Shown here: positions 1,792-55,930 of the stretch, piece after piece
Numbering within the stretch: position 1 is the first letter of the stretch
How the letters are laid out: every line of letters starts with the position of its first letter
Origin: a virus
Lineage: Duplodnaviria; Heunggongvirae; Uroviricota; Caudoviricetes
Direction: 5' to 3' (one strand)
Length of the DNA: 64,000 nucleotides
IMG/VR virus record: IMGVR_UViG_2541047850_000005
Location: 3,554 to 67,553 of that record
The notes under the pieces: model-generated
Database searches by the model: none
What the model saw: only the letters and a program-made list of their open reading frames with translations
Told to the model about the DNA's origin: nothing
Program-made: the position numbers and the translations under genes

Positions 1792-1812
1792 AAATAACAA
1801 ATTGTTTTCTTG
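1792..1812 (-). promoter_or_regulatory. motif-1 palindromic operator/promoter element (AAAACAAsTTGTTTT family)
   Basis: aaataacaaattgttttcttg immediately upstream of the 1292..1774 start; one of at least 13 copies in the window. Confidence 0.45.
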
Positions 1813-2124
1813 TTGGCGTTAATTATCGTTGTACGAATAAGGCATCAAAGTGGAAAGTTGCGGTAGCCGGACGGGAACAGGTGGGTTTGTCGGTTGCCTG
1901 GAGGTAAGAGGTTGGTGTTTTTAGCCTGCGGGAAACAGGATGGTCATTTAAGGCCACCAGCAGTGGTGGCCTTAATAATTATCGACCGATTACGCTAAGG
2001 ATCTTTTCCTCAACTGATTTGTTGTTGCGACTAAACTGCCTTGCGTATCTGATGACAGAAGAGGCGTTTTGCTTTCTGACTATCTCGGCTCTTTCCTTCA
2101 GGCGTTTCTTGAAATCGCCCATAT

Positions 2125-2499
2125 TTACCACCAGGCGCAGAAGGTCAGTCTGTTATTGTGAAAGTCGTGGTTCTTAATCAGCTCTTCCACAAGTTTTTTC
2201 AACTCCCCCACGTCATGCCAGTACCCTTCATCGTACTCCTGACTGCCGAAGAAAAAACCTTCACAGGTAGGTAAGTACTCTTCGCAGTTACTTTCGTTCA
2301 TGTGCATCAAATGAGCTTTCAGAGCACAAATGTCATTCATCGTTAATTCTAAAAGCTCACAATTTTTGACTTCACCTACGTTGCGTTCCATCCACCCAAA
2401 GAGAGCATTGAACTTACGGAAGTAAGCAACCTTCTTTCTGGATGCATCGTTATTCAGATCGTTTTTTGGTTGCGTCTCAATGTAGATATCAAGTCCCAT
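2125..2499 (-). CDS. hypothetical protein (124 aa)
   Basis: ORF track; motif-1 copy at 2556-2574 upstream; hairpin GGCCACCAGCAGTGGTGGCC at 1961-1980 after the stop. Confidence 0.5.
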   Translation of the reverse strand: MGLDIYIETQPKNDLNNDASRKKVAYFRKFNALFGWMERNVGEVKNCELLELTMNDICALKAHLMHMNESNCEEYLPTCEGFFFGSQEYDEGYWHDVGELKKLVEELIKNHDFHNNRLTFCAWW

Positions 2500-2617
2500 G
2501 ATGGTTTCCTTATCAAGTTGCTTTCAGTGAAAGCATTTTCACAAATCAGATAAGGCAGAAAACAAATTGTTATCGGGCATAAGAAAATGGCGCGGTTTAC
2601 GCGCCATTCAAAGAGGA

Positions 2618-3025
2618 TTAAGCGAATACGCTTTCAGGGATTAAGGTGTCAGCAGGAATGCCGGAGGTAATGCGCAGACCATACTGACCAATCCAGGTAG
2701 TGTTAGTGTTCAGACTGGAAGCGAATACGGTGTTAACCATATTCATCATGGTTTCAAACACCTCTTTATTCACCTTACGGAAGTAACTTTCAATTTTCAA
2801 CAACAACGGGTCCGTTGCATCAAAAATGGACTGATATTGCGCCTCATATTCCCCGCCTGATGTATCTCCTTTACGCACAATAGTACTTGCCTGAACTTCA
2901 GTTCCAGTTTCGGTGTTGTACGTAACGACGGTGATTTTAGCTACATTCTTACCTTCGGCGCTTTCTGAAGCATAGTAGACATCAACTGTCAGGTTTTCTC
3001 GTTTAACGCTCATATCACTCTCCAT
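2618..3025 (-). CDS. hypothetical protein (about 131-135 aa)
   Basis: ORF track; likely true start a few codons inside (MSVKREN…). Confidence 0.45.
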   Translation of the reverse strand: MESDMSVKRENLTVDVYYASESAEGKNVAKITVVTYNTETGTEVQASTIVRKGDTSGGEYEAQYQSIFDATDPLLLKIESYFRKVNKEVFETMMNMVNTVFASSLNTNTTWIGQYGLRITSGIPADTLIPESVFA

Positions 3026-3139: not shown

Positions 3140-3451
3140 TCAGGCTATTGCCATCACTGATGCTCTCTGAATCTCTTGCTGGGCCACGCGGTTAACTTCC
3201 ATCAAAGCCAGTTCGAGCTGATGTTCCGGCCACATTCTTTGAAATGCCATCCAGCCTTTTCCACGCTGGCGACGAACATTCATTACATAACGAGTAAAGG
3301 TGTTTTTATCGAAAGACACCGCTGTTTCACGGAACAGACGAATAGAGGTTCCATTGGCAACGATGTCCAGCAAAGTTAATTGAGCAACCAGCGCAGGCTT
3401 CTCTTTTCTCTTCTGGTCTTTGTCCAGACCAAGAACCAATGATTTTTTCAT
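3140..3451 (-). CDS. hypothetical protein (about 104 aa)
   Basis: ORF 3140..3481 trimmed to the ATG at 3451 (MKKSLVLG…) that follows a GGAG SD and lies downstream of motif-1 copy 3461-3479. Confidence 0.45.
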   Translation of the reverse strand: MKKSLVLGLDKDQKRKEKPALVAQLTLLDIVANGTSIRLFRETAVSFDKNTFTRYVMNVRRQRGKGWMAFQRMWPEHQLELALMEVNRVAQQEIQRASVMAIA

Positions 3452-3604
3452 CACAACTCCGTAAACAACTTGTTTTCTCAATGTCGTAAATAATACCAGT
3501 AAGAAAACGGCTACAAAGCATATTGATCAGGTGCATGAGCGATATGCAGGTTCTTCCCTGCGGCTATAGAGAAATTAAGCCAGCAATGCTGGCTTTGGTT
3601 GGGA

Positions 3605-3934
3605 TTACGCGAATACCTCAAGAAACTCCTGAACGTCCCAATGCTGGACGAGGTGAAGATAGACCTTAGAAATCACGTCATTTTCACTATCGCATGTGAA
3701 GTAGTACTTCTGGCTGCGGTTGTATGTGTCCACACAAAATTCGCTCATATCCATAAAGTCAGCATCTTCACCCATGTCGCAAATCATCAAAGCAGGTGCG
3801 TCATCACGAGTCATCAGCTCCAGCACCCATATTGAATTAATCAGAGTGGAAGACCAACCTTCCAGCTCATAAAACTGGTCAAACTCTTTTTGAGTCAATT
3901 TCTTAATTTGGTTGATGTCGATATTTGCAAACAT
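3605..3934 (-). CDS. hypothetical protein (about 109 aa)
   Basis: ORF 3605..4000 trimmed to ATG at 3934 (MFANIDINQ…) preceded by AAGGA; motif-1 variant at 3945-3962. Confidence 0.4.
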   Translation of the reverse strand: MFANIDINQIKKLTQKEFDQFYELEGWSSTLINSIWVLELMTRDDAPALMICDMGEDADFMDMSEFCVDTYNRSQKYYFTCDSENDVISKVYLHLVQHWDVQEFLEVFA

Positions 3935-4039
3935 AAAGCAATCCTTAAACATGTTGTTTTCTGAATTACGTAAACAATACCAGTAAGAAAACGGCCACAA
4001 AGTATATCGTTACGGTGCTGCGCTGCCCCGGAGGTTAAT

Positions 4040-4292: not shown

Positions 4293-4879
4293 CTCTTCAT
4301 CCTCACTTCGTTTCTATAACGTCTAAATATGCTGTTTACTTGTTGGTGTTATTATCGCAATAAGACAAAGGCGAAAAAGGATTTTATGTCGGGAAAGCCA
4401 GGCTGGGCAGTGAATATCCGGGAACGACACGAGAGCCAGTATTTACGATATTCTGCTCTACGCACGCCGCGGGGCTGGTGGGCAGAATAATCCTCTCCCC
4501 GAAAACCTACTGAAATCGATTGTGACCCGCTGGCTGTCTGGCACAATTACGCTGTATCTGGCATTCAGAGGGAATCCAGCGGTAAGCAAGTCAGCCTGCA
4601 CGTGAGCGTCTCTCTTCTTCCCGCACATTACAGGTGGGTAGCTGCAACTCTCTCTCGCTATACCGGTACGCCGCCGTTCCTGAACCGGCATCGAGCCTTT
4701 TCCCGAAATCCACACAGGCAACTCGACCGTTTCCCTGAAAATCCCCAGCCGTTTCTGTAGCGTATGCAACCTTTTCTCTGTATGGACCGAAGGCTGACCG
4801 TAGGGGTGTTACGGGGGATGATGGTAAGATGTTGAATAAATACGAAAAAGGAGGCGACACCCCTCCTTCCCTCCCCACT

Positions 4880-5660
4880 TATACATACCTTGCTTCTTCG
4901 CTATACATGTTGTGTTTTCTTCGTGTTTTATCTGTCTCAACCTCTCTATAGGCGTTAATGCTTACTCCTTCCAGAACGTTCTATACGGCGACTATTTCTG
5001 TTGGTGAATTGGGTGTGTTGTTTTCTCTGTCGATGTATGTGGTTTCGTTCGTTTTGCGGTGGTTCTTCTATGGGGTGTTCTCGTCGTTTTGGTGATTGTT
5101 CTTCTCCGTGTATGGAGTAATGGCAGGTGGGCGATTCCTTTCGTTATTGTGTTTGAGTTGTTTGTCTGGAGTGTGTGAAGGGCTTTTGTAGTTATTCGTG
5201 TATTGGGTAATGGCGTTTCCCGTGATTGTTATGTTTCGTGTCTTTTGGGATTGAGAGAAACCTTGCGGTTACAGGCTTCGTTGGGGTTTCAGCGGTTCAG
5301 GTGTTTCTTCGCTGTTTGGGTAATGGCGTGTCGTGGGTATCGCGCGTATGAATGTTTTCGGATTGCCTGTGAAAGTTAGGTTGGTTATCCGGTAGCCTGG
5401 GAAGAAGAGGTGGGGTCTTTTCGGTAGCCTGCCATAAAGAGGTTGGTTGTTTTGGGTAATGGCATATGTGTTATTTGGTTGTTTTGTTATGCCTGAAAAT
5501 AAGTTGTTTATATGGTTGTGTAACGCAACGGGAGCGATTTTGAGCGTGTGTTTTTGTTGGTAGTGTGTTGAGTCGTCTGTGGTGAAAATTGGACGCTGTG
5601 GAGCTGTCTGCTGCGTAGGTTTACGGGTATAAGAAGTGATGTGTGAAAACGTCAATTTTT
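4880..5660. repeat. strand-asymmetric GT-rich repeat block (no credible ORF)
   Basis: Plus strand is almost only G and T over about 800 bp; at least 4 copies of GGGTAATGGC plus one GGAGTAATGGC, and repeated CGGTAGCCTG; ORFs called here are low-complexity. Confidence 0.5.
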
Positions 5661-5861: not shown

Positions 5862-6170
5862 TTACCAGTTCCAGCACTCAAGCCCTTCAACGACCGGCGC
5901 ACCACAATCAAAATGTACAGAGTCAAAGCCTACATCAAGTACTTTCTGAATGTTAGCAATCGCGCCTTCGGATATACCATATCGACGCAAGTCGTCTTTC
6001 CAGACATCATCCTGTAACCCGGCGTGGACAATACAACCGCCATCAATTTGTGAAACCCAATCCAGCTCATTGCTTGCGATCATGAATCGGCGAGCATCTT
6101 CCTCTGATGTATGAGATGAACTGATCAATGCCACCTGGTAGGCTTGGGTAATGTTCAACATTTCAACCAC
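5862..6170 (-). CDS. hypothetical protein (102 aa)
   Basis: ORF track; two motif-1 copies upstream at 6172-6194 and 6221-6240. Confidence 0.45.
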   Translation of the reverse strand: MVEMLNITQAYQVALISSSHTSEEDARRFMIASNELDWVSQIDGGCIVHAGLQDDVWKDDLRRYGISEGAIANIQKVLDVGFDSVHFDCGAPVVEGLECWNW

Positions 6171-6322
6171 TCCAAAACAAGTTGTTTTCTTATGTGGCTT
6201 ATTATCTCTAACAACAAAAGGCAGAAAACAAATTGTTTTAGGTACTGTGTAAATCAGAAGGGATTGTGTCTATATGAAAATGCCCGGCGTGTTGCCGGGC
6301 ATTGCGAAGAGAGGTTGCTTAA

Positions 6323-8356
6323 TTACTTAACCTGGTGACCAGGTTTAGCACCAGCATCCGGGCTTAACAGGAAGATATCTTTCCCACCAGGACCAGCAGC
6401 CATCACCATGCCTTCTGAGATACCGAAACGCATTTTACGCGGAGCCAGGTTAGCCACCATAATGGTGTGACGACCAATCAGTGCCTGTGGGTCTGGATAA
6501 GCAGAACGAATGCCGGAGAAGACATTACGCTTTTCCCCACCGAGATCCAGTGTCAGACGCAGCAGTTTGTCAGAGCCTTCAACAAACTCCGCGTTTTCAA
6601 TCAGCGCCACACGCAGGTCAACTTTGGCGAAGTCGTCAAAGGTGATGGTTTCCTGAATCGGGTCGTCAGCCAGTGGGCCAGTTACCGGTGCGGCTGTGGC
6701 TTTCACTTCTTCTTTGGATGCTTCCACCAGTGCTTCCACCTGTTTCATATCGATGCGGTTATACAGCGCCTTGAACGGATTCACTTTGTGGCCCAGCAGC
6801 GGTTGCTGGATACCATCCCAGGTCAGTTCTGTATTGAGGAATGCTTCTGCGCGCTCGGTCAGTTTCGGCAGTACCGGTTTCAGGTAAGTCATCAGCACGC
6901 GGAACAGGTTAATGCCCATAGAGCAAATCGCCTGCAGATCGGCATCGCGACCTTCCTGCTTCGCCACCACCCACGGAGCCTGTTCATCGACATAGCGGTT
7001 AGCCAGGTCAGCCAGTGCCATGATTTCACGGATAGCTTTACCAAATTCGCGGCTTTCCCATGCTTCGCCAATCACTTCAGCGGCATCAGTAAAGGTTTTG
7101 TACAGTTGCGGGTCAGCCAGTTCGCTTGCCAGCACGCCGTCAAAACGCTTGTTGATAAAGCCTGCATTACGGGAGGCCAGGTTAACCACTTTGTTCACGA
7201 TATCGGCATTCACTCGCTGAACGAAATCTTCCAGGTTGAGATCGATATCATCAATGCGCGAAGAGAGTTTCGCAGTGTAGTAGTAACGCAGGCTGTCGGC
7301 GTCAAAATGATTCAGCCAGGTGCTGGCTTTAATGAACGTGCCGCGAGACTTGGACATCTTCGCACCGTTCACCGTCACATAGCCATGAACAAACAGGTTG
7401 GTCGGCTTGCGGAAGTTGCTGCCTTCCAGCATGGCAGGCCAGAACAGGCTGTGGAAGTAAACGATATCTTTACCGATGAAGTGGTACAGCTCGGCGGTGG
7501 AGTCTTTCTTCCAGTATTCATCGAAGCTGGAGGTGTCGCCGCGTTTGTCGCACAGATTCTTGAAGGAACCCATGTAGCCAATCGGCGCGTCCAGCCAGAC
7601 GTAGAAATATTTGCCCGGCGCGTTCGGAATTTCAAAACCGAAATAAGGGGCGTCGCGGGAGATATCCCACTGTTGCAGGCCAGATTCAAACCACTCCTGC
7701 ATTTTATTTGCCACCTGCTCCTGCAACGCACCGCTGCGGGTCCATGCCTGCAGCATTTCGCTGAAAGAAGGCAGATCAAAGAAGAAGTGTTCGGAATCAC
7801 GCATTACCGGCGTAGCACCAGAAACTACCGATTTCGGCTCGATCAGTTCAGTCGGGCTGTAAGTCGCGCCGCAGACTTCACAGTTATCGCCGTATTGATC
7901 TGGCGCTTTACATTTAGGGCAGGTGCCTTTTACAAAACGGTCCGGCAGGAACATGCCTTTTTCCGGGTCGTATAACTGAGAGATGGTGCGGTTTTTAATA
8001 AAACCGTTCTCTTTCAGGCGAGTATAAATAAGCTCGGACAACTGACGGTTCTCTTCGCTGTGCGTCGAGTGATAGTTGTCATAGCTGATGTTAAAGCCTG
8101 CAAAATCAGTCTGGTGTTCCTGACTCATTTCGCCAATCATCTGTTCCGGTGTGATACCAAGCTGCTGTGCTTTCAGCATGATCGGTGTGCCGTGGGCATC
8201 GTCGGCACAGATGAAATTAACCTCGTGGCCGCGCATTCGCTGGTAACGAACCCAGACATCAGCCTGGATGTGCTCCAGCATATGGCCGAGGTGGATTGAG
8301 CCGTTAGCGTACGGCAGCGCGCACGTCACCAGAATTTTCTTCGCGACTTGGGTCAT
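6323..8356 (-). CDS. metG: methionine--tRNA ligase (MetG), E. coli-type
   Basis: 677 aa from [41 protein letters not shown]…; class I aaRS HIGH/KMSKS (KMSKS present), C-terminal tRNA-binding domain; from memory near-identical to E. coli MetG. The ORF track's 43-residue N-terminal extension (to 8485) is rejected. Confidence 0.95.
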
Positions 8357-8513
8357 AGTAGGCATTACTTCTTTGTAGTGAAAAGGGGCTTGATAGTAAC
8401 AAAATGGCCTTATGTCTGCCATGTGATAACAGCATTTCTCATAAATGATTAAATGCCGTAGCTGGAGTACACTACAAGGCGACAATTGCGCAAATTAAAA
8501 TAAAGGAGACGGG

Positions 8514-9614
8514 ATGAGCGAGTCCAAATCGCCGGATGCCCTGAGAGCAATGGTAGCCGGTACGCTGGCTAATTTTCAGCACCCAACCCTGAAACACAAC
8601 CTGACTACGCTTAAAGCGTTACACCATGTTGCGTTGATGGATGACACACTGCATGTCGAACTAATCATGCCTTTCGTGTGGAATAAGCCTTTTGAAGACC
8701 TGAAAGAGCAATGTAGTGGTGATCTGCTCCGTATCACTGGCGCAAAGGCTATCGACTGGAAGCTGTCGTACAACATTGCCACGCTTAAGCGCGTCAAAAA
8801 CCAACCAGGCATTAATGGCGTTAAGAACATTATCGCCGTCAGCTCAGGCAAGGGCGGCGTTGGTAAATCCTCCACGGCGGTAAACCTGGCACTGGCGTTG
8901 GCTGCTGAAGGTGCGAAAGTTGGTATTTTGGATGCCGATATCTACGGGCCATCAATTCCAACCATGCTTGGCGCGGAAAACCAACGTCCAACCTCACCGG
9001 ACGGTACTCACATGGCACCGATTATGTCTCATGGACTGGCAACCAATTCAATTGGTTATCTGGTAACTGACGACAATGCGATGGTGTGGCGTGGTCCGAT
9101 GGCGAGCAAGGCGTTAATGCAGATGTTGCAGGAAACTCTATGGCCTGATCTGGACTATCTCGTTCTCGATATGCCGCCGGGTACTGGTGATATTCAGCTG
9201 ACGCTGGCGCAGAACATTCCTGTAACTGGTGCTGTTGTGGTAACTACGCCGCAAGATATCGCGCTGATCGATGCGAAGAAAGGCATTGTGATGTTCGAAA
9301 AAGTCGAAGTGCCGGTACTGGGTATCGTCGAAAACATGAGTGTGCATATTTGCAGTAACTGCGGTCATCACGAGCCAATTTTTGGCACCGGTGGCGCACA
9401 GAAACTGGCCGAGAAATACAACACGCAGTTGTTAGGCCAAATGCCACTTCATATCTCTCTTCGTGAAGATCTGGATAACGGAACACCAACCGTTATTAGT
9501 CGTCCAGATAGCGAATTTACGGCTATTTATCGTGACCTTGCAGATCGCGTTGCTGCCCAAATGTATTGGCAAGGTGAAGTAATACCTGGCGAAATCGCAT
9601 TCCGCGCAGTGTGA
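8514..9614 (+). CDS. apbC: Fe-S cluster carrier ATPase ApbC/Mrp
   Basis: 366 aa with Walker A SSGKGGVGKSSTAVNLA and CxxC (CSNCGHH) motif; divergent from metG as in the E. coli chromosome. Confidence 0.93.
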   Translation: MSESKSPDALRAMVAGTLANFQHPTLKHNLTTLKALHHVALMDDTLHVELIMPFVWNKPFEDLKEQCSGDLLRITGAKAIDWKLSYNIATLKRVKNQPGINGVKNIIAVSSGKGGVGKSSTAVNLALALAAEGAKVGILDADIYGPSIPTMLGAENQRPTSPDGTHMAPIMSHGLATNSIGYLVTDDNAMVWRGPMASKALMQMLQETLWPDLDYLVLDMPPGTGDIQLTLAQNIPVTGAVVVTTPQDIALIDAKKGIVMFEKVEVPVLGIVENMSVHICSNCGHHEPIFGTGGAQKLAEKYNTQLLGQMPLHISLREDLDNGTPTVISRPDSEFTAIYRDLADRVAAQMYWQGEVIPGEIAFRAV

Positions 9615-9651: not shown

Positions 9652-10041
9652 CTACATCACAGGACAATCATCAAACTCGCCACTTCTTGCGTCGTTGATA
9701 ATGTGAGTGATCACACCAAACACGGCATTGCTGCCCGTGCATCCATCATCATCCTTTGGCAATGCTTCCTTCTTACCAGTTCTTAAATCCTCCAGATGCT
9801 GACGTGGATACTTCCGGTATCTTTTTACGCGATATTCCCCATCCAGAGCACATACAAGAAGAGATCCATCAACAGGAGTGAGTGAGGAATCGACCACCAG
9901 CAATGCACCCTGCAATATTCCCTCACGATGATGGCTATCAGCTGCCCTCAAGAAGTAGGTCGCTGAAGGATGTCTAATTATCTGCTGATCAAGAGAAATA
10001 CGGCTCTCAGCATAATCCGCCGCAGGAGAGGGGTACCCCAT
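9652..10041 (-). CDS. UmuD'-like S24 peptidase domain protein (N-terminally pre-truncated)
   Basis: MGYPSPAADYAESRISLDQQIIRHPSATYF… aligns with E. coli UmuD from Gly25 onward ([29 protein letters not shown]); Ser (DSH) and Lys (RVKR) of the catalytic dyad retained; in-frame stop 3 codons upstream of the ATG. Confidence 0.7.
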   Translation of the reverse strand: MGYPSPAADYAESRISLDQQIIRHPSATYFLRAADSHHREGILQGALLVVDSSLTPVDGSLLVCALDGEYRVKRYRKYPRQHLEDLRTGKKEALPKDDDGCTGSNAVFGVITHIINDARSGEFDDCPVM

Positions 10042-10059: not shown

Positions 10060-10079
10060 TACTGTTTATCTGTACAGTA
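10060..10079 (-). promoter_or_regulatory. LexA (SOS) box
   Basis: TACTGTTTATCTGTACAGTA = CTGT-N8-ACAG, 19-38 bp upstream of the UmuD'-like start. Confidence 0.65.
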
Positions 10080-10198
10080 TACATTAAAGAAGCACCTTTG
10101 GTGCATTAGAGAAATGCAAAACGATAATAGAGGCTAAATCGAGGTAGAAAACACATTGTTTAAGGCCACTAATTGTGGCCTTAATGGAGAGGGGATGC

Positions 10199-14413: not shown

Positions 14414-14654
14414 TGGCTGCCTCCTGCTTTTCTGCCTTCAACACCATGCGAGAACCATCATCCAGCTCCCACACTATCTCACCACCTTCAGCCATGACCA
14501 GTTGCCACACCAATTGAGCAGCCTCATTGGTAACATCACGACCTGGATCATTGCCAACGCGCATACGTCCACCTTCAACATCGCGCATTTTTGCCAGCAT
14601 GATAGTTTTTGATAGCGGTGAAAAACCAAGCTGTAGTCGTGCTGAATTACTCAC
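14400..14654 (-). CDS. hypothetical protein (84 aa)
   Basis: ORF track. Confidence 0.35.
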   Translation of the reverse strand: MSNSARLQLGFSPLSKTIMLAKMRDVEGGRMRVGNDPGRDVTNEAAQLVWQLVMAEGGEIVWELDDGSRMVLKAEKQEAASERN

Positions 14655-15157
14655 TGGTTGCCTCCTTTGCGAAGCTGGTCGGCGAACAAACGTACACCAG
14701 ACGCTTCACTGCGTAGAAACTTAACGGCATCATCAAAACCACCTCGTTCTGCGTCGTCTGCTCCGTTGTCGAGGTTATCTGCGTACATCTCTACCCCCTG
14801 CGCCCGTACTTCAGCCAGAAAAGCATCGGTGGCTGGAGTCTCCGTTAATTCGCTAACCCAATTATCTCCGTGTTCCTCGGCACGCATCGCATCGAATGCT
14901 CGCTCAGATTCTTTCAGGGCTGCATTCTCCGCCGCTAATGCGTCTCTCTGCGCCCGCAACTTCTCAATTTCGGCAGCCATGTAGTAACCAACCATAGCGA
15001 AGACGGCAAAAGAGTTGTCTGCCTCATCAGGCGACACTGAGGCCATTAGCAGACCATCGTAATAATCGTGACTCCCATTGGTGATCGCCACCGCATAGGA
15101 GTCGTGGTTCTCACGCTTGTGAATGAGAACTACGGGGTTTTCGATTTTGTTACTCAT
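14651..15157 (-). CDS. hypothetical protein (168 aa)
   Basis: ORF track; conserved AAGGAAAAACAC-ATG initiation context; motif-1 copy at 15227-15248. Confidence 0.45.
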   Translation of the reverse strand: MSNKIENPVVLIHKRENHDSYAVAITNGSHDYYDGLLMASVSPDEADNSFAVFAMVGYYMAAEIEKLRAQRDALAAENAALKESERAFDAMRAEEHGDNWVSELTETPATDAFLAEVRAQGVEMYADNLDNGADDAERGGFDDAVKFLRSEASGVRLFADQLRKGGNQ

Positions 15158-15295
15158 GTGTTTTTCTCTTCTTTGCTGTTACATAAGCACTACCAAGTGC
15201 TGGTTTATTTTCACAAATAAGAAAATGTAGAAAACAATTTATTTAAGGCCACAACTTATGGCCTTTATTTATTCATGCCGAAGGATTTGTAGCGT

Positions 15296-19756: not shown

Positions 19757-20053
19757 GTGTTTTTCCTAATGCTTAAACAAGTTGTTTTCTTATTGGCTTT
19801 ATTGTGATGTGGCATAAAAGGGGAGCAAGCTAAACGTAAAGGTGCAAACTCTCTATTTCGGTCAACGAAACACAATGGCCATTTGACCCTTGTCATTAAC
19901 ACGTTGCTTTACGGACTAGCGGATAAGCGAAGTAGATCGCCAGACCAATGAGGACGCCATCAGAAATGACAGACATCATCTTTCCCGTAAAATCCACCAA
20001 CACCGCCATCACCAGAAGAGCAATGACGGTCACAAGCCGGAATCTCTCAAGCA

Positions 20054-20479: not shown

Positions 20480-20572
20480 GTGTTTTCCTTTTGTTATTTG
20501 TCAAAACAAGTTGTTTTCTAGTTAAATAAATTGCTTACGCAAAGGCGGTCAATGCATATGCACTAACAACCG

Positions 20573-30694: not shown

Positions 30695-30796
30695 TTTTTC
30701 CTTTTGCTTTTTGATGTGTTTAAACAAGTTGTTATCCTATTTGTTTAAACAAGGCTTACAAATCAAAGAGAAGGTGGGGATACACCCCACCATATG

Positions 30797-36658: not shown

Positions 36659-37744
36659 TCACACAGCCTCCGAACTCTCCGCTTCGGTGAGGATTTCCTG
36701 ACACAAAATATCCAACTTGCTCAGATCAAATCCGCCGTCAGTATCGTGGACAATCTTGCAATAAGCAGATACCGACTCTCCCAGGCTATCGATTTTGCTG
36801 GTTTCCGTTGTGCTTACTGTCCCTTCCATCATTGATGACTTACGGATGAAGTTGCACACGACACCTTTTGCACCCATTGTTTTGAGGATGTTCTGGTACT
36901 TAATGCCTTCTTCATCGTTCTCAATTACGGCGCGGAAACGCACGTAGTTGCCGCGAATTTGGTCATCGGCAACATAATCTTCTAGGTTAATGAATTTAGG
37001 CGCACTGGTTTCGTAGTGACTGAAACTGCCGTCCGGGTTTACGATCATGTAACCAGCCAGAGATCCAACATCTCCCCAATTTTGATGGGTCAGCGCACCG
37101 ACACTGATAACTCCAGGAATGACCTCTTTGTGGTTGTGGTAATGCCCACTAAGCACGAGACGAAAGCCGATATCCTTTAACTCCTGCGCATCGATACCGA
37201 CGTCAGGCATTGTTGGAATGGCTTTGTTAATGGATGTATGGATAACAACGTCATGATTATCACCTTCTACGCTCTTACGTAATGCTTTCAGATCGCTGAT
37301 AAGCTCCGCATGATTGTTACGCCAGCTAATCAGGTGGACAGTCACATCACCAATTTTTATTGAGTGTGGGCGTTTGCCACATACGATTACCACGCCGATA
37401 GAACTCAGCGATGCTGCTGCGTTGGCGCTATATACTGAATCGTTGGTTTCAAGATCGTGATTACCGGCCAGCATTACTACTGTCAGATCAAGCTCGTTGA
37501 TAATCCACTTGTACGTTTCAGTTACGTAATGCAAAACAGAAGGGGACACAGTTCCTCGGACGTGAAATGTATCACCGGCAACCAACATGTACTTACAACC
37601 GGCCTTCTTCATGGCGATGGCTGCTTCTTTCGTTGCTTCCAACTGTATTTCAAGTCTGGAGTTAAGCCCCTCAGCGTTCGTCGTGGAGAACGCATCCCAT
37701 TTGTGGTAGTGGCAGTCAGAAATGACGCCGTATGGCAAAGTCAT
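36659..37744 (-). CDS. sbcD: SbcD/Mre11-like nuclease (calcineurin-like phosphoesterase)
   Basis: MLVAGDTFH, LAGNHD, GHYHNH phosphoesterase motifs; directly upstream of the SbcC-like gene. Confidence 0.8.
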   Translation of the reverse strand: MTLPYGVISDCHYHKWDAFSTTNAEGLNSRLEIQLEATKEAAIAMKKAGCKYMLVAGDTFHVRGTVSPSVLHYVTETYKWIINELDLTVVMLAGNHDLETNDSVYSANAAASLSSIGVVIVCGKRPHSIKIGDVTVHLISWRNNHAELISDLKALRKSVEGDNHDVVIHTSINKAIPTMPDVGIDAQELKDIGFRLVLSGHYHNHKEVIPGVISVGALTHQNWGDVGSLAGYMIVNPDGSFSHYETSAPKFINLEDYVADDQIRGNYVRFRAVIENDEEGIKYQNILKTMGAKGVVCNFIRKSSMMEGTVSTTETSKIDSLGESVSAYCKIVHDTDGGFDLSKLDILCQEILTEAESSEAV

Positions 37745-41732: not shown

Positions 41733-42158
41733 TCAATCTTCTTGTTTAGGGAAAAACTGTTCAATAACTCTGTCAACGGCTGTGTCTATATGGAGTAGAT
41801 GCCACACAACCATATCTTTGCTTCCCATGCCTTGTGTGAATATCACGTCATACTTACGCCATGCGCAGTGGAACCAATATGCTGAGTCATCAATTGGTAA
41901 ATCCTCTCCCGCCTCTTTGAAGTATTTCAGCAGCATTGCCTGCTCTGCCGTTGGCGTTGGGCCTATTTCCTGAGCGTACATACGGATGAATCGCTGCCAG
42001 TCTGTCTCGTCGGGGGTTGGATCTGGTGGGGTCATTTCTGAGATAGCGTTTCGTAGCTGATGCGCCCAATCAGGTTCAGGAAAGCCTTTTGCTACTTCAT
42101 CATCAATAACATCCAGAGCCACGTTTGCGGCATCGTAGAGTTTCTTAATAGCTGTCAT
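41733..42158 (-). CDS. hypothetical protein (141 aa)
   Basis: ORF track; motif-1 copy at 42170-42194. Confidence 0.45.
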   Translation of the reverse strand: MTAIKKLYDAANVALDVIDDEVAKGFPEPDWAHQLRNAISEMTPPDPTPDETDWQRFIRMYAQEIGPTPTAEQAMLLKYFKEAGEDLPIDDSAYWFHCAWRKYDVIFTQGMGSKDMVVWHLLHIDTAVDRVIEQFFPKQED

Positions 42159-42204
42159 GTTTTCTTATCCTTTTAAACAAATTGTTTTCTTAATAAGATA
42201 ATTG

Positions 42205-42250: not shown

Positions 42251-43081
42251 TTATTTCACTGTAATGAAAGGAGTGTTAGCCCCTTGAGTCATGTACTGCG
42301 GTAACTGGCCATTCCATTTATTGATGGCTTCCAGCTCCATAACGTTCGGGTTTTGACGCAGAGCTTCACCGCGCAGACGAATGGCGTCTGCTTCTGCTTG
42401 CGCACGAGCACGGATAGCATCAGCTTCACCATTAGCCTGTTCACGTAGCATATTCGCCTCAGCTTTACGTTGTTCAACTTCCTGCTGACGTTGCAGAGTA
42501 CGCTGGTTAGCCGTTACTTTGGCGTTGATAGATTCAATGACGGTTTTTGGGTAATCAGGCTTTCCAACCCATGACAGGCTCAGTACCTCAATACCAACCG
42601 GAGACATCTCTTTCTGAATATCTTTCAGTGCGTTGTCCAGCAATTGTGCCTTACCACCGTCGATAAATGAGTCAGTGGTCATACGGCTGGCCAAACGGTT
42701 TAGAGAGTCGGCAATTTTCTGACGCAGATCTGATTCGGTGATATCGTCTACGCCTTTGCGATAGGTCTGGAACACCGTCGTTACCTTGTCACGATTAACC
42801 AGATACGCAACGCCAATTTTGTGACCAATAGCAGTACCGTCACTCATCTGGAATGTGAACGGCTCGTCGTAGGTCTTCATTTGTTTGAAGGTCGGGAATA
42901 CGTAAAGTTCGGTGTTAAGACCTGTCCATTGGCGACCAACGCCAACTACTTCACCAATCCCTTTGTCTTCACCTAATTTGTTTACTTTGATGCCAACGTA
43001 TCCAGGCTCCACGCGATCACAGCCAGTAAGACCCATTGTGCAAACAGCGGCCACGATCACTGCCAGTAAACCTTTCTTCAT
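42251..43081 (-). CDS. SPFH/band-7 domain lipoprotein
   Basis: Lipobox LTGC after a signal peptide; band-7-like core and C-terminal coiled coil (EADAIRARAQAEADAIRLRGEAL). Confidence 0.6.
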   Translation of the reverse strand: MKKGLLAVIVAAVCTMGLTGCDRVEPGYVGIKVNKLGEDKGIGEVVGVGRQWTGLNTELYVFPTFKQMKTYDEPFTFQMSDGTAIGHKIGVAYLVNRDKVTTVFQTYRKGVDDITESDLRQKIADSLNRLASRMTTDSFIDGGKAQLLDNALKDIQKEMSPVGIEVLSLSWVGKPDYPKTVIESINAKVTANQRTLQRQQEVEQRKAEANMLREQANGEADAIRARAQAEADAIRLRGEALRQNPNVMELEAINKWNGQLPQYMTQGANTPFITVK

Positions 43082-43377: not shown

Positions 43378-45717
43378 TTACTCTTCTACTGACTCGGTGG
43401 GGTTGTCTTTTGCTCTTCGGTCGTCGATTGCCTGCAAAGCCGCAATGATTTCAGCCAGTGGCTTCTCCCGATACATCTCGACGATCTGCGATTTGGTGTA
43501 TTTCTTGTCACCAATTTCAACTCGCCCGCTGGCGTTCTTTGGCAGGTATCCTTCTTCCAGCATGTACTCGACGAGCGATTCGATAACGTCGAGGCCACGA
43601 GTAGGATCGAAGTAGAATTTCCAGGTGCATTTGCCATACGGTGGTGCAACTTTGTTTTTGATGCATTCTGCGCCTACGTCCTGGCCGATCTTCTCTTTAC
43701 CATCCTTCATCACCGATGCACCAAGACGGATACGTACAGAAGCGTAGAACTTCGGTGAATCTCCACCTGGCGACGTAGTAGGGTCGCCAAACATTACACC
43801 GATTTTTGTGCGAACCTGATTCAAGAAGATGATGCAGGCGTTGTATTTGCGTGCCCACAAAGCCAGAGTAGGGAAGTTCGCACTTGTCGCACGAGCCAGT
43901 GCCGTATTGTCGTTCATGTTTAGCTGATCTTTGTCTTTGGCAGTGCCTTCAGCCATCTTTTCGAACTTCTCGGCTTTGGAGTTCGGAACCATAGACGCAA
44001 GTGAGTCAGCCACGATACAGATAGGTGCTGATTCAGGAATAAGCTCTTCATCACGTACCAATTTAAGAATTGTGCCGATCAACTCTACAGAGTCTTCGAA
44101 GGTATCAGGCTGCTTGTATACCCACTGACCGTCATCCTCATCTGCGTTCAGGCCATTGGCTACAGCCAGGCCAACGTCAAAACTGTTTTCATGATCGAGG
44201 AATACCGCCAGACCATCTTGTTTTTGAGCGGAGATCATCGCTGCTGTTGCAAGGAATGTGTTGTGGCTGATAATCCCGTTAGACCAGAAAGAGTGTGTTT
44301 CCGGCATCGCTACGTCGAACGTTGGTGCTTCACCTTCCTCAATAGCCACGACTTCGTCGTAGAATAAGTTAGAGCCAATTACCGCTGCCAGTTGTGCAAA
44401 CAGATGCTCGTTAAAACGATTCTTTCTGCCAATGAAGGAGACATAGATTTCTCGCAGTTTGTCTATTCCGACACGATCGCCGCGGCCAATAACGTGGTCT
44501 ACCAGAGCGTAGTCTTCACGGGTGGTCTTGGTGAGCGACTCGTAGAGTGATTTCACTAAGCCGCTGATGTGCGGAACATAGCCTGAGTAAGTGCGGTCAA
44601 AACCAATGTCCCGTTTGGTTGCCACTGATAAACGTGCCGGAGATTCGAAACCAATCGTTGACAGAAAAAGGTCGTAATTAGAGCCACTGAATGACAGCCG
44701 GTAATATGTATTTTCATAACCCGCGACGTGTTTTTCAGAGATAGTTGACGTAATCCCCAGATTCAGGAGCATGAGGCGAATTTGCTGTAGCAGCAGCCCA
44801 CTCGCGCTCACAACCTCAATGCAGCGACCACCATTGACGTGGCATTCCAGCTCAAAGTAGCCGCGAAGGAATGCAATTTGAGCCTCGCTATTGGCGCGAC
44901 GCACACTCAACGGAACCTGCTTGCCAGCAGCTTTCTCATACTCCAGACCATATTCTTTAAAAAGCAGCGAACGCACCTCTTTGCTAAACAGCACATGGTC
45001 TTCCGAGCCGTTATGTTTTCTCGTAACTGGCATCTTGTCTGATACCAGCGAAATGAGGCGGTAGTACTCATCCTTGATGAATGGATCTGTGTTAGAAAAA
45101 TGCACAGAATTTTCAGAGGCCACGTATCCGTCAGCAATTAAATAGCCCATCAGTTTTGCGATATTGGCATCCAAGTGCTGATCGCCGAATTGATGTGTGC
45201 CAACCATTGAAGGAATCGTGTCGCCTACACTGATTTTTTCAGCATACCGCCAGACGATATTGCCTAAGTCGTCAACCACACGAATTGGGTGACGGAACGT
45301 AGCCTCGATGTAACCCCCTGATGCCAGCTTAATGCGCTTGAATTTGCGACGGTTGTTCCATGTCAGGTGTGAGGTTTTCTCTATCACGCCATTTTCATTG
45401 ATGAGTCCAACGTTATGCTCTACATCGCGAGTAGTGCATGTTGCTTTGTGCCCCTCAATCTCAAACAGTTCTTTCACTGTTACCATTCCACGCTCCGTCA
45501 GCAGCATGGTGTCTGCGGTAACACATTTCCCCGCACTTGGAGGACCGAATACTTCGACGATACGACCACATGGGAAACCGCCATCGTAACGACCGGAAAT
45601 CGCTTTGTTTAACGGAGGAAAGCCTGTGTCAATCCAATGAGTTACTTTCTGAATTTCGTCGTTGCTACCGATTTTCTTTTTCAGAGCAAGTGCCAGTGCG
45701 GATTTTCCTTTTGCCAT
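43378..45717 (-). CDS. recA: RecA-family recombinase interrupted by an intein
   Basis: N-extein ends …VFGPPSAGK, C-extein resumes TFLATAAM…FLNQVRTKIGVMFGDPTTSPGG…FYASVRIRLG (collinear with bacterial RecA); 779 aa total, 357 aa after predicted splicing. Confidence 0.85.
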   Translation of the reverse strand: MAKGKSALALALKKKIGSNDEIQKVTHWIDTGFPPLNKAISGRYDGGFPCGRIVEVFGPPSAGKCVTADTMLLTERGMVTVKELFEIEGHKATCTTRDVEHNVGLINENGVIEKTSHLTWNNRRKFKRIKLASGGYIEATFRHPIRVVDDLGNIVWRYAEKISVGDTIPSMVGTHQFGDQHLDANIAKLMGYLIADGYVASENSVHFSNTDPFIKDEYYRLISLVSDKMPVTRKHNGSEDHVLFSKEVRSLLFKEYGLEYEKAAGKQVPLSVRRANSEAQIAFLRGYFELECHVNGGRCIEVVSASGLLLQQIRLMLLNLGITSTISEKHVAGYENTYYRLSFSGSNYDLFLSTIGFESPARLSVATKRDIGFDRTYSGYVPHISGLVKSLYESLTKTTREDYALVDHVIGRGDRVGIDKLREIYVSFIGRKNRFNEHLFAQLAAVIGSNLFYDEVVAIEEGEAPTFDVAMPETHSFWSNGIISHNTFLATAAMISAQKQDGLAVFLDHENSFDVGLAVANGLNADEDDGQWVYKQPDTFEDSVELIGTILKLVRDEELIPESAPICIVADSLASMVPNSKAEKFEKMAEGTAKDKDQLNMNDNTALARATSANFPTLALWARKYNACIIFLNQVRTKIGVMFGDPTTSPGGDSPKFYASVRIRLGASVMKDGKEKIGQDVGAECIKNKVAPPYGKCTWKFYFDPTRGLDVIESLVEYMLEEGYLPKNASGRVEIGDKKYTKSQIVEMYREKPLAEIIAALQAIDDRRAKDNPTESVEE
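44260..45525 (-). mobile_element. intein with LAGLIDADG homing endonuclease, inserted in the RecA P-loop
   Basis: Begins CVTADTMLL, contains ATFRHP (TxxH), LMGYLIADGYV and FLRGYFELECHV, ends GIISHN followed by Thr; about 422 aa. Confidence 0.85.
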
Positions 45718-45719
45718 GA

Positions 45720-45992
45720 TCAGGCTCCTTTTGTTTCGTTGATTCGTTTTAAAGCGGCGGATTCGTCGAATACAATCGCATCGTGGTTAAGGTGTCTGGA
45801 TACACGAGCGAGGATTTTTACGACCTGCTCGCTGACTAATCCAAACTCGCGATCTGTCGCTTTCATTCCGGCAGCGTCTAGAATTGACGGCAGTGCGATG
45901 ACAGCGTACTCACCGTGATAAAAGACAATCTCTTTTGCCAGTTGGGTAGGGGTGGTTGTAGCGCCATTAATAATCGATTTAAGCATTAGCAA
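45720..45992 (-). CDS. hypothetical protein (90 aa)
   Basis: ORF track; coupled to RecA and FEN genes. Confidence 0.4.
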   Translation of the reverse strand: MLMLKSIINGATTTPTQLAKEIVFYHGEYAVIALPSILDAAGMKATDREFGLVSEQVVKILARVSRHLNHDAIVFDESAALKRINETKGA

Positions 45993-52396: not shown

Positions 52397-53628
52397 CCAA
52401 ATATTTTTTGAACAACTTCACGAGCCGCTTGTGCAGAAGCTGAAGGGAGTTTGTTAATGAAAGAACGCTCAATACCTGTCACAAAATCGCCTCGCATCAT
52501 TCCAATCTTGGCCGACAACAAAAGCTCACGAGGCCCAATCGGTTGGCTGATATTGTGTTCTTCGTATCCATCGCGAACGATACCGGCAAACTTAACCATC
52601 TTTTCAGCGTATTCATCCACGATGCCGGCATTTATCAACATGTTGATCTCTGCCTCTTTGCTCATGTATTTCACATTCGAAACGATGCCAAAACGCGAAA
52701 AGTTAGCGGCGTTCTGGATGTTTGTACCCTGGTACAAGCCGGTTTCATCACCAGATCCGTTCGTGTTGCCAGTGCCAATGAAAGCAAACCGTTCATGCGG
52801 AGTAATGCGACGCCATTCTGGAGTCGCCTCTTTGATGACCAACGCTTCACCTTCCAGCACTGGCTGATACACGCCAAGAATCTGTGGAAACGCAAAGTCG
52901 TATTCATCCGCGAGGTAAACCCAGCCATGCTTCATTGCGAGCGCAAGCAAACCAGGCTCGAAATACGTAGAGCCATCACGCGCCAGAATTTGTCCCGTAA
53001 CATGAGCCTCTTCCATTGATGCTGTATGTTGGGCACGGATTAACGGACGATTGAGCAAAGCACATAGTTGTGTAGGCAATGAAGATTTGCCTGTTCCTGC
53101 ATGACCCCACAAATAGCCTGGTATGCCAAGTTCAAGCATCATGAAAATGTCTTTGATCAGTTCGAAGTCGCCATATACGTATCCCTTCTTCACTTCTGGA
53201 ACGAACTCTGGAAACGGCGTATTGACGTTGACGCTAACCATGAGCGGCGTCCCACGTTTTGTTCCGAGTTCTTTCACCGTTACATTTAGCATTTCGTGAG
53301 CTGCGACCAGATCTGTCTTGTACTCAACTGTGCCTGTATAGCCTGGGCTATTGGTCACGCCAGATGATTTGGCCATTTCGCTTTTTTGCTCGGCACGTTT
53401 AGCTTGAATTGCATCAAGTGCCTTTTTCGATAGCGTTGGCTCATCTGGAAACTGCGTTGTGTACATTTTCAGTACGGTGTCAGGATCGGCATCTTTTACT
53501 GACTCAGGAATGCCCTCGCAATTACCATTGGCTACATGGGACTTAAAATAGTGAAATGATTTTCCGCACCACTTGCAAACAAGGTAATCAGAAGGATTTT
53601 TTTCATTTTGCAGTGCAGTAGTAGTCAT
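52393..53628 (-). CDS. AAA+ ATPase, CobS/MoxR-like
   Basis: Walker A GHAGTGKSSL and Walker B-like VYLADEYD. Confidence 0.65.
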   Translation of the reverse strand: MTTTALQNEKNPSDYLVCKWCGKSFHYFKSHVANGNCEGIPESVKDADPDTVLKMYTTQFPDEPTLSKKALDAIQAKRAEQKSEMAKSSGVTNSPGYTGTVEYKTDLVAAHEMLNVTVKELGTKRGTPLMVSVNVNTPFPEFVPEVKKGYVYGDFELIKDIFMMLELGIPGYLWGHAGTGKSSLPTQLCALLNRPLIRAQHTASMEEAHVTGQILARDGSTYFEPGLLALAMKHGWVYLADEYDFAFPQILGVYQPVLEGEALVIKEATPEWRRITPHERFAFIGTGNTNGSGDETGLYQGTNIQNAANFSRFGIVSNVKYMSKEAEINMLINAGIVDEYAEKMVKFAGIVRDGYEEHNISQPIGPRELLLSAKIGMMRGDFVTGIERSFINKLPSASAQAAREVVQKIFG

Positions 53629-53723
53629 GCGTTTTTCCTTTGTTTTCTAATGAGCTTTCAACTTCTTATATAAATATACCATCAAATATCGTAAGTGATT
53701 ACTTATCATTAAGGCTATTCTAA

Positions 53724-55832
53724 TCACTTCAAAATGATACGAGATAGTTCAGTAACTACAGATGAACCAAGACTATCAACGCTCGTTACCAGGGCATGGT
53801 TTGCGTAAAATCTCTCCGGTGCGTCAGTCATGATGCCAATTGCCATCAAATCAATGTCAGTCTGCGTTTCAATTTGCTTCGCAACCGAACGCAAATGAGC
53901 GTCAAAACCTCTCCCAACAGCCAACGGCTCGCCATCATTCAGAACAAGCATGATCTTCCTGTCCTCCATGCGACCGGAAAATAACGATGCAAGGCTGGCT
54001 ATGCTTTCACCATCCACGTTATTAAGAAGTGGGAATGTGTAGCCTACGCACCCCATACGTGAGCGAACTTCGCGAGAATTTACCTTTTCATTCCAATTTT
54101 TGATGATAGGTAGCATTAAAGATTCAAAGCGAGAGAACTCATACTTGACAGCCTTAAGTTCTCCTGCCGCCATATGACTACCAAATGTAGTGAAGCCGGT
54201 GATAATGTTGGGAACATTTATTCGATCAAGGGCATCGGCGATGGTATATGCACTTGCAAGAGCCAATTGTATCGTTATACCACTCATTGAACCTGATAAA
54301 TCAATCACTTGTTGAACACAGGCGTTAACGGCTTTAGATTCTTCTTTTTTACGAAACACGCGATCATCATTCATTGCTAATCTGTAGATACTAGAACCAT
54401 GAATGCGCCCCCGACGCTGGCCCGGTATAAACTGAACTCTGTTTCTGCTTGCTATTGCTCGCTCCAGGTCTTTTGCCAGCGTCGACGAAACACCTGACGA
54501 AAGATGCTTTTCAATATATTTGTCGAAGAGCTGGTTGCCTTCAGGAACGATGCGATAGCGGCTGATTGGATATCCTCCTAAATCAATATCGGAGAATGTT
54601 TTAATAAGCCGTTTGATATGGGCTTCTGCCTGATCAATCGAGCCGATGAAGTCGTATGAGCGATTGTATGGCCTGTATTCACTTTTCGAGCTTTCTGTTA
54701 ACTCGCTTTTAATCGTTTCGGATAGAGCATCTTCTGTCATGCCTCCGACTTCATCTTCTATGCTATCCAGCTCCTCTAAAGCCTCTTCCAGACTCATTTT
54801 TGACGTAGTTGGAATATCTGAAGAGCCGTCTTCTGTCGTTTTTCTTTTTTCGTGGTCAGCGGTTAATGATTCTGACGCCGCGTTATCAGAAGCATCAGAA
54901 TCTGATACCTCTTTATCATTTTCTGTATCATCGAATATTGTTTCTGATGATTCAGAATTATCTGAATCATCACTGTCGTTATTATCATGTTTGTGCTTAC
55001 TATGTGATTCTGATTTGATAGATTTGTGATTATCTAACAATGAGGGTGTCTCATGATCTTCGTTGTCTTCATTGTTTTCTCCAGAGGCATCCGTCTGGTC
55101 AGCGTCTGAAGGATCGGAAGTTTTTCCCGGAGCTGACTCCTTACCTTTGCTTTCACTTTCAGTGTCTTTGAGGATCTTAGCTATGGTCGCAGCCACCTTT
55201 ACACAATCCTCGGTGCAAGACATGTTACGCACGGCCACATCGATACCATGTTCTTTTAATAATGAAATTGGTTTCTCAATGACAGGCCAATATTCATCCA
55301 TGAAATCTACGAACGGTGCTTGGCCATCCCAGGCTCTTACAACCGGACAGAGAAAGAAGTTTAGAAAAAGCGCGCGCTGATCTTTGCCACAATAAGCAAT
55401 AGCCTCTGAAGCCTTTGGTTTAAAGACTTTTTCGATTATAAGGCGCTGAGTTGCCATCAGATTACGTCTTGTTCCGTTAAAGACCTGACCCATTTTTCGC
55501 TCGATGAACACGTCTTCTAAGGCATTCCATAGCGACCAGGAAGGAACGCGTCCTTTTTCTTTCATTTTGTTGGACACACGAATATCGGTAAACAAAATGT
55601 GAGCAACCTCATGATCGAGAAATCCGCGCACAGCATTCATCAATGCCGGTGTTGCGTTATCCGGGATTGATGGGATGTTTACGAGAATTGGCTCTCCATC
55701 ATCATTATAGCGTACATAAGCGTCGTCCCCTCGTTCTGCAACAGGGATGTTTTTACCTGAAAGGAGAGCGACTACTCGTTTTACACTGTCACGGAAGTCC
55801 TGAACCTCTTTGATGGAACGTTTTTTAGACAT
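53724..55832 (-). CDS. CobT-like protein with acidic linker and C-terminal VWA domain
   Basis: Central Asp/Ser/Glu-rich low-complexity stretch; C-terminal MIDAS-like VIDLSGSMSG. Confidence 0.6.
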   Translation of the reverse strand: MSKKRSIKEVQDFRDSVKRVVALLSGKNIPVAERGDDAYVRYNDDGEPILVNIPSIPDNATPALMNAVRGFLDHEVAHILFTDIRVSNKMKEKGRVPSWSLWNALEDVFIERKMGQVFNGTRRNLMATQRLIIEKVFKPKASEAIAYCGKDQRALFLNFFLCPVVRAWDGQAPFVDFMDEYWPVIEKPISLLKEHGIDVAVRNMSCTEDCVKVAATIAKILKDTESESKGKESAPGKTSDPSDADQTDASGENNEDNEDHETPSLLDNHKSIKSESHSKHKHDNNDSDDSDNSESSETIFDDTENDKEVSDSDASDNAASESLTADHEKRKTTEDGSSDIPTTSKMSLEEALEELDSIEDEVGGMTEDALSETIKSELTESSKSEYRPYNRSYDFIGSIDQAEAHIKRLIKTFSDIDLGGYPISRYRIVPEGNQLFDKYIEKHLSSGVSSTLAKDLERAIASRNRVQFIPGQRRGRIHGSSIYRLAMNDDRVFRKKEESKAVNACVQQVIDLSGSMSGITIQLALASAYTIADALDRINVPNIITGFTTFGSHMAAGELKAVKYEFSRFESLMLPIIKNWNEKVNSREVRSRMGCVGYTFPLLNNVDGESIASLASLFSGRMEDRKIMLVLNDGEPLAVGRGFDAHLRSVAKQIETQTDIDLMAIGIMTDAPERFYANHALVTSVDSLGSSVVTELSRIILK

Positions 55833-55930
55833 GGCTAATCCTTTGTTATGAAAACAAATTATTTACTAGTATGTTTAATGTAGCACTGCGCGAACAGGGA
55901 ACTAAGCCATTCGCGCAGGTAGCAGAGGGG

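Follow-up and report, generated by a model that had tools for sequence, protein, structure and literature searches.

What reads a 15-bp palindrome that recurs ahead of many minus-strand genes in a phage genome, and does it do so on DNA or on RNA? The question is raised by a 64,000-nucleotide stretch of viral DNA (positions 3,554 to 67,553 of IMG/VR record IMGVR_UViG_2541047850_000005; hereafter the window, numbered from its first letter). The window is 99.6% identical to the complete genome of Escherichia phage PhiR41_1, of which it represents the reverse complement of approximately 80.4–108 kb plus 1–36.4 kb, about 96% identical to the phage-plasmid Cyrano (pLF82), and 77–87% identical in DNA to Salmonella phage SSU5 across shared genes. 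Judged by these alignments, it is an SSU5-like phage-plasmid, of the family of SSU5, pHCM2 and pMT1, and its modules for replication, nucleotide metabolism and recombination, together with many small genes, lie nearly all on the minus strand. Our analysis points to an operator built into promoters, with an FljA-family protein encoded just beyond the window as the candidate binder.

The site has a 13-bp palindromic core, AAACAANTTGTTT (AAACAA-N-TTGTTT), arranged as 6-1-6, or as 7-1-7 when taken as the 15-mer AAAACAASTTGTTTT; written out as a duplex it is AGAAAACAAGTTGTTTA. The exact 15-mer occurs twice in the window (6174 and 20503) with 0 copies expected, and allowing up to two mismatches raises the count to 11, where 0.31 would be expected and none of 100 shuffles gave more than 2. 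A preliminary description made from the letters alone had listed the copies, and all of them were recovered within 1–6 nt of where it had placed them: those at 1794, 2559, 3462, 3946, 6174, 6225, 19774, 20503, 30721 and 42174 with no more than two mismatches, those at 10148, 15231 and 55851 with three, and that near 4330 as an intact promoter cassette whose palindrome (4324–4338, TAAACAGCATATTTA) has decayed to four mismatches. In PhiR41_1, 18 cores were found at up to one mismatch, 17 of them within the 11% of the genome that is intergenic, whereas dinucleotide-preserving shuffles of that intergenic DNA alone (GC 39%) averaged 0.17 and never exceeded 2, so the motif is far commoner than AT-rich intergenic sequence yields by chance, contrary to the outcome that would have refuted the preliminary description. 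The PhiR41_1 sites outside the window stand ahead of parA, the replicative helicase gene and the small terminase gene (terS, which has a pair). Both nrdB and the cobT-like gene belong to the set, as had been proposed, with sites 29 nt and 18 nt before their respective ATGs. Anatomy and geometry were examined over 71 sites from six elements (PhiR41_1-type, SSU5, Enterobacter wuhouensis, Nissabacter, Cronobacter and Klebsiella pneumoniae pL3995-2). The centre base, earlier given as G or C, turned out to be unconstrained in this sample (A21/T18/C17/G15).

The palindrome is conserved well beyond the close relatives of the window. Of the roughly 22 sites in SSU5, many occupy corresponding positions (at terS and parA, at the helicase and cobT-like genes, at nrdB and in the small-gene cluster), and the same core is present in the E. 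wuhouensis, Nissabacter and Cronobacter elements. In pL3995-2, whose proteins are only 30–90% identical to those of this element, 13 perfect cores fall within 20 kb, and across the relatives compared the core is kept while its flanks diverge. Among IMG/VR loci holding the 17-mer, 46 of the 53 with several cores were SSU5-like, and the remaining multi-core loci look like chance matches inside genes of AT-rich phages. Our literature search found no paper with the motif, nor any account of regulation in the SSU5-like group.

The pattern of change within the core indicates how it is read. All 28 changes over the 71 sites were one-sided and none was compensatory, and they were spread evenly over the halves (13 left, 15 right). 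As an RNA hairpin, the palindrome folds with −0.6 kcal/mol (z about −0.9), a value that shuffled sequence equals, and an Rfam search of the window matched no family; an RNA hairpin or known RNA family was rejected given the negligible folding, the lack of covariation and the lack of an Rfam match. Symmetric change without compensation, together with the negligible hairpin, suggests a symmetric reader that recognises sequence rather than an RNA stem, the simplest case being a dimer bound to DNA.

We then located −10-like hexamers relative to the core by an anchored offset analysis of the 71 sites. The hexamers concentrated at two positions, 13–14 nt upstream of the core (24 sites) and exactly 19 nt downstream of it (16 sites), with every other offset represented by at most 5 sites, and many were extended −10 elements (TGnGATAAT). 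Class 1 sites follow the consensus ..ATAAT.ACACCAA.AAGA-AAACAANTTGTTT-A, in which the sequence between the −10 and the core is alike among sites (consensus ACACCAACAAGA); their promoters have recognisable TTG-type −35 elements, and the distance from core to ATG varies between 11 and 22 nt. Assuming a start about 7 nt past the hexamer, the class 1 core would span roughly +8 to +20, with its centre near +14. Class 2 sites follow the consensus terminator-..CCTT-AAACAANTTGTTT-TCTGCCTT..(TG.)GATAAT, their promoters often having an extended −10 and a poor −35, and here the core would span about −44 to −32 of the putative promoter, centred near −38 over the −35 region. Class 2 is an inverted class 1, AGA/TCT flank included, so that in both classes the extended half-site points toward the −10. 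At some promoters a site of each class is present, the two lying 51 bp from one another and bracketing the promoter: one such promoter in the window (6225/6174), two in SSU5 and one in pL3995-2. Class 2 sites were also considered as opposite-strand promoters of a short RNA, which was rejected because no acceptable −10 was found there and a T-run was absent in half of the cases.

The preliminary description had instead placed each copy at a fixed 10–25 nt before a ribosome-binding-site and ATG context. This describes the copies at 1794, 3462, 3946, 6174, 19774, 20503, 30721, 42174 and 55851 (15-mer to ATG, 10–29 nt), and about two thirds of copies lie 10–30 nt ahead of a start codon; however, those at 2559 (59 nt), 6225, 10148 and 15231 lie further upstream (61–108 nt before the start codon for the PhiR41_1 counterparts), and the copy at 5496 likewise does not fit. 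The initiation context AAGGAAAAACAC-ATG, said to be conserved, is present at some of the genes but not at all: GGAAA..CACATG was found at only five starts under the pattern used, which missed near variants such as the start at 20479. As a separate observation, the CACATG start context occurs 22 times on the gene strand of the window and 6 times on the other. Since spacing is fixed to the −10 and variable to the ATG, the site is tied to the promoter and not to the ribosome-binding site, and we regard it as very probably a promoter-coupled operator. The idea of a shared operator ahead of many minus-strand transcription units thus survives; as to whether a DNA repressor or a 5′-untranslated-region operator is involved, the evidence leans to a promoter-linked, sequence-read site, leaving the untranslated-region version weaker although not dropped.

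Taken together, the palindrome would be a shared operator within the σ70-type promoters that serve lytic, replication and late functions in SSU5-like phage-plasmids. A single element-encoded symmetric (dimeric) protein would bind all sites and keep this regulon silent in the plasmid-prophage state. The +14 and −38 places both lie within the RNA polymerase footprint, so a protein bound at either should shut the promoter; repression is probable, and we prefer it to activation. Expression in the LF82(Cyrano) lysogen (PMC9928086) is consistent with this: the site-bearing terS, nrdB, cobT-like and helicase genes, whose sites lie in the window or in PhiR41_1, were at background by RNA-seq, and plasmid and moron genes (repA, the toxin–antitoxin pairs and the CI-like gene) were expressed. 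No core was found in the control regions of repA or the CI-like gene in the window or PhiR41_1. The binder, in the same proposal, would be the conserved FljA-family protein, which at the +14 sites might in addition block translation as FljA does on fliC mRNA, because the core there would form the 5′ end of the leader, 11–22 nt from the ATG. As a whole, a shared repressor operator served by one regulator, with the FljA-like protein as candidate, is the best explanation we can offer, held with a confidence just short of even.

The candidate gene lies at 37192–37710 of PhiR41_1 (protein P0001), which places it approximately 0.8–1.3 kb outside the window, past position 1; it is encoded on the other strand from the regulon and has its own TATAAT promoter. 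Its product matched PF03614 (E 1e-68) and is 35% identical to Salmonella FljA (E 9e-36). A search of 50,697 records found the protein in each of the 12 from SSU5-like phages but in no further complete phage genome, with partial matches in two short fragments, and it occurs on 832 PLSDB plasmids, including S. Typhi pHCM2-type, Y. pestis pMT1/pFra and many Klebsiella plasmids. Its AlphaFold model (predicted local distance difference test score, pLDDT, 76.5) comprises two helix-plus-five-strand modules, and the top 39 Foldseek matches to the model were all Hfq. The FljA family, Salmonella FljA included, is predicted to adopt a tandem Hfq/Sm-like fold. The family is tiny, with 30 representatives among 1.8 billion clustered proteins, and has an invariant N-terminal arm (TYG.P.EV.PRDY) that is modelled as disordered. 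In the LF82(Cyrano) lysogen the gene reached log2 7–8 in four of five conditions; its expression and the silence of the regulon in these data are correlative. Translation of fliC mRNA is blocked by FljA, which binds an operator in the leader (PMC4122451, PMC2652032), and the fliC leaders of Salmonella and Citrobacter contain CAAGTTGT 19 nt before the ATG. The FljA-like protein ranks first for two reasons: no other candidate combines universal conservation with expression in the lysogen, and its family works at an operator with dyad symmetry that lies between the start site and the Shine–Dalgarno sequence. That it is the binder is possible, although we lean slightly to the doubtful side.

Several proteins were set aside as binders. 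The preliminary description had looked to the helix-turn-helix proteins of the element for binding; however, the CI-like repressor (56391–56777) and the AraC-type protein of the window are both absent from SSU5, which has the same motif, and the control region of the CI-like gene itself contains TGATATA repeats and no palindrome (divergent region 56143–56391). These two genes, with an integrase gene and an 826-residue open reading frame, lie in a low-GC island at about 56140–62500 (35–43% GC), in which the CI-like, 70-residue and AraC proteins had no SSU5 match. Conversely, the SSU5 repressor-like proteins SSU5_116 and SSU5_054 are absent from this element. A host transcription factor appears improbable as the binder, because the multi-copy motif is confined to SSU5-like contigs and we know of no enterobacterial transcription-factor site that matches the palindrome. 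Comparison between elements was of limited help in choosing among the conserved candidates: pMT1/pFra retains all candidate genes and hence does not discriminate among them; a test of co-variation between protein and motif was uninformative, the core in the most divergent element being unchanged though the FljA-like protein there is 38% identical; and the distant FljA relatives P0080 and P0095 lie on contigs too short for gene context.

A number of observations weigh against the proposal. With regard to geometry, 32 of the 71 sites fall outside the strict −10 offset rule, starts were placed solely from −10 matches, and a strict two-hexamer scan did not call the palindrome-bearing promoters, because their −35 elements are weak, for which reason the anchored analysis was used. 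With regard to expression, parA is site-bearing but shows moderate expression in the lysogen. As for the binder, tandem Hfq-like folds are not known to recognise palindromes in double-stranded DNA, and the FljA-like protein is among the most diverged between elements (34–38% identity in pL3995-2), whereas the core is invariant. No −38 site can work through the leader RNA made from its own promoter. The fliC match, suggestive but weak, amounts to 8 contiguous bases, only 8/12 of the full core, and its chance probability, for a match sought after the idea had formed, ranges from about 0.004 to 0.17 by counting mode.

The explanation that survives best besides this one keeps the promoter-coupled DNA operator and changes the protein, which would be either a 216-residue coiled-coil plus winged-helix protein or one of two ParB-N-domain proteins acting in the manner of KorB. 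The winged-helix gene is a neighbour of the FljA-like gene, and its 3′ end occupies 1–173 of the window (plus strand), where the window edge cuts it. The protein is found in all six elements at 49–94% identity, and a 7-1-7 inverted repeat is the format typical of Fur-family boxes; its gene (CYRAN_113) was nevertheless at background in nearly all lysogen conditions, a poor fit for a silencing repressor. The ParB-like proteins, both matched by PF02195 and TIGR00180, keep 65% identity in even the most divergent element. The palindromes bound by KorB are 13 bp long and in some cases centred near −39/−40, but the core has no sequence resemblance to the KorB site TTTAGCSGCTAAA, and no helix-turn-helix was detected in the ParB-like proteins outside the N-domain. 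Their genes lie in an operon running into the terminase genes, which suggests a role in packaging or modification. On balance we consider one of these binders unlikely, while giving it a real share of the probability.

A second alternative confines the effect to RNA: the FljA-like protein, bound to the 5′ leader, would occlude the ribosome-binding site and trigger mRNA decay just as FljA does on fliC, DNA playing no role. The founding FljA does act on mRNA (PMC4122451, PMC2652032), and rapid degradation of fliC mRNA has been reported when FljA blocks translation (PMC4122451), a decay that would be in line with the background RNA levels seen for the regulon in the lysogen. The predicted Hfq-like fold, the position of class 1 cores 11–22 nt from the ATG within the ribosome footprint, and a motif that is first A-rich and then U-rich, as would suit Sm-type proteins, are all in keeping with it. 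Five features of the sites are difficult to reconcile with such a mechanism: spacing follows the −10 and not the Shine–Dalgarno sequence or ATG; at least 16 sites, a type that makes up most of those in pL3995-2, lie 19 nt upstream of the −10 and thus outside the transcript of that promoter; the 51-bp pairs bracket the promoter; perfectly symmetric conservation is unexplained for a single-strand reader; and the hairpin is negligible. We therefore hold the RNA-only version to be improbable.

If the site instead served an activator, or were a phage-specific element switching on middle and late promoters in lytic growth, silence in the lysogen would simply reflect absence of the activator. Class 2 sites suit this well, having a good or extended −10, a poor −35 and a palindrome at −38, close to class-II activator geometry, and the winged-helix protein is silent in the lysogen. 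The fit is restricted to that class, however, as the larger class sits at +14, where activators almost never work, and has promoters with recognisable TTG-type −35 elements, and the two-site promoters bracket the polymerase; activation thus appears distinctly improbable. Finally, the view that the palindrome has no function, and arose incidentally from AT-rich intergenic DNA or through duplication of a promoter cassette, is scarcely credible: the similar −10-to-core sequences of class 1 sites suggest that some copies share ancestry, but the hundred-fold excess over intergenic shuffles and the conservation of the core amid diverging flanks in elements such as pL3995-2 effectively refute it, and the core also occurs in two inverted contexts with different flanks.

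Returning to the promoter-linked repressor operator, the individual sites of the window, all on the minus strand, can be described by class. Among class 1 sites, the copy at 1794–1808 (gene-sense AAAACAATTTGTTAT) has GATAAT 13 nt upstream and the ATG of open reading frame 1292–1774 19 nt downstream; that at 3462–3476 has TGgTATTAT 13 nt upstream, GGAG directly after it and an ATG at 3451; that at 3946–3960 (AAAACAACATGTTTA) has TGgTATTGT 13 nt upstream and an ATG at 3934; the perfect 15-mer at 6174–6188 has GATAAT 12 nt upstream and an ATG at 6161, which starts a DUF5983 protein; and that at 19774–19788 has CACAAT 12 nt upstream and an ATG at 19756. Among class 2 sites, the copy at 2559–2573 (gene-sense ATAACAATTTGTTTT-CTGCC) follows a terminator hairpin and lies 59 nt before the ATG of open reading frame 2125–2499, with an extended −10 (TGtGAAAAT) starting 19 nt past the core, and the copy at 6225–6239 lies on the promoter of the 6174 site, 51 bp away centre to centre. 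Two further class 2 sites abut hairpins: 10148–10162, with TATTAT starting 19 nt past the core in the promoter of the umuD-like gene (9652–10041), and 15231–15245, with TGtGAAAAT at the same distance, upstream of open reading frame 14651–15157. The two hairpins (10163–10185 and 15246–15266) are nearly identical (aaggccac...gtggcctt), and SSU5 likewise has two copies of the hairpin plus class 2 module (85.6 and 87.6 kb), which resembles a repeated terminator–operator–promoter cassette.

The other copies follow these patterns less closely. The perfect 15-mer at 20503–20517 has the AGA flank and lies 23 nt before the ATG at 20479 (TciA-like gene), with its −10 off the standard offset under the strict rule. 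The site at 30721–30735 precedes the nrdB ATG at 30691 and has an orthologous SSU5 site at 70218; the site at 42174–42188, with an AGA flank, comes directly after a terminator, 15 nt before the ATG at 42158; and that at 55851–55865 (TAAATAATTTGTTTT), with TACATT 11 nt upstream, precedes the ATG of the cobT-like gene (55832) and has its SSU5 orthologue at 42728. At the decayed copy at 4324–4338, the cassette TGCGATAAT plus 13 nt is intact, and the SSU5 counterpart site is still good. A copy missing from the preliminary description lies at 5496–5510 (TAAACAACTTATTTT). Neither of the standard offsets holds a −10 there, but four relatives keep the site: SSU5 (at 90739), Cronobacter, E. wuhouensis and Nissabacter. 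Around it, 5380–5560 is a CA-rich low-complexity stretch (caaaacaaccaaataacaca...), for which gene calls differ among PhiR41_1, Cyrano and the open reading frames listed for the window.

Further observations concern neighbouring control signals and genes. The terS leader (PhiR41_1 45676–45760; SSU5 55–130) contains two palindromes 25 bp apart and, between these and the ATG, a GC-rich hairpin followed by a T-run (agagcgcatggacgcgctct-gtgtgtttt). SSU5 and Cronobacter share this terminator-like structure, a hint that antitermination may control the late operon. Two perfect LexA boxes (TACTGT-N8-ACAGTA) lie at 10060–10079, before the umuD-like gene, and at 57902–57921, before the integrase gene (56772–57875), so that the umuD-like promoter has a LexA box together with a class 2 palindrome. 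The palindrome does not fit the LexA pattern CTGT-N8-ACAG, and the two boxes are separate sequences from it. These boxes may link the element to SOS induction; Cyrano is ciprofloxacin-inducible (PMC9928086). The element also carries a full-length methionyl-tRNA synthetase gene (6323–8485) and, on the opposite strand, a MinD/Mrp-like ATPase gene (8514–9614), the latter listed as expressed in the Cyrano lysogen (PMC9928086).

Enterobacteriaceae very commonly carry SSU5-like phage-plasmids, a clinically widespread family, and the literature searched contained no published account of how they choose between lysis and plasmid maintenance. A 13-bp site at fixed promoter positions defines a regulon, predicts derepressing point mutations and narrows the regulator to three conserved candidates. 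Were the FljA-family protein to bind it, a small family would gain a general function and a defined nucleic-acid target. It is even conceivable, though doubtful, that FljA proteins are ancestrally and most commonly master regulators of phage-plasmids, reading some 20 copies of the 13-nt element in each genome, whether on promoter DNA, in the first 20 nt of leaders or on both, and so coupling promoter shut-off with a translational block, and that Salmonella FljA is a domesticated copy.

By analogy with known systems, a shared repressor operator is the simplest reading. A short site occurs at many promoters far above chance and at fixed positions in the polymerase footprint of the putative promoters, and a repressor operator array in a temperate element is of an already known kind. 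In phage P1, likewise a plasmid prophage, the C1 repressor site is scattered over lytic and replication promoters, overlapping the promoter or sitting just downstream and sometimes paired; its operators, however, are asymmetric 17-mers (ATTGCTCTAATAAATTT), unlike the symmetric palindrome here. The gp71 stoperators of cluster A mycobacteriophage L5 are 13-bp sites in some 20–30 copies that lie in short intergenic regions and silence the genome as a whole (PMC6550527), but they lack symmetry, have a constant orientation relative to transcription and act by blocking elongation, in contrast to palindromes locked to the −10 at two positions. No homologue of P1 C1 or L5 gp71 was annotated or found, and the core is unrelated to ATTGCTCTAATAAATTT or GGTGGMTGTCAAG. 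The KorB/KorA system of IncP plasmids (RK2) offers a 13-bp palindrome with a free or degenerate centre at many plasmid promoters, one class of it just upstream of the −35, and ParB-family proteins are encoded by this element too; the sequence is nevertheless unrelated, and KorB has no counterpart to the +14 class. The lac operator O1 is also a palindrome just downstream of the start (+11, compared with about +14 here) that excludes or traps polymerase, although its sequence and protein family are unrelated and the present site serves a multi-promoter regulon. Closest in protein family is FljA–fliC, from the flagellar phase variation of Salmonella: the element encodes a PF03614 protein, class 1 sites would lie between the start and the Shine–Dalgarno sequence, and CAAGTTGT stands in the fliC leader; FljA, however, has one known target against about 20 sites here, many of which lie upstream of promoters, and spacing here follows the promoter. 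A possible FljA-family regulator, Hfq-like by structure prediction, is the part of this system that could be new.

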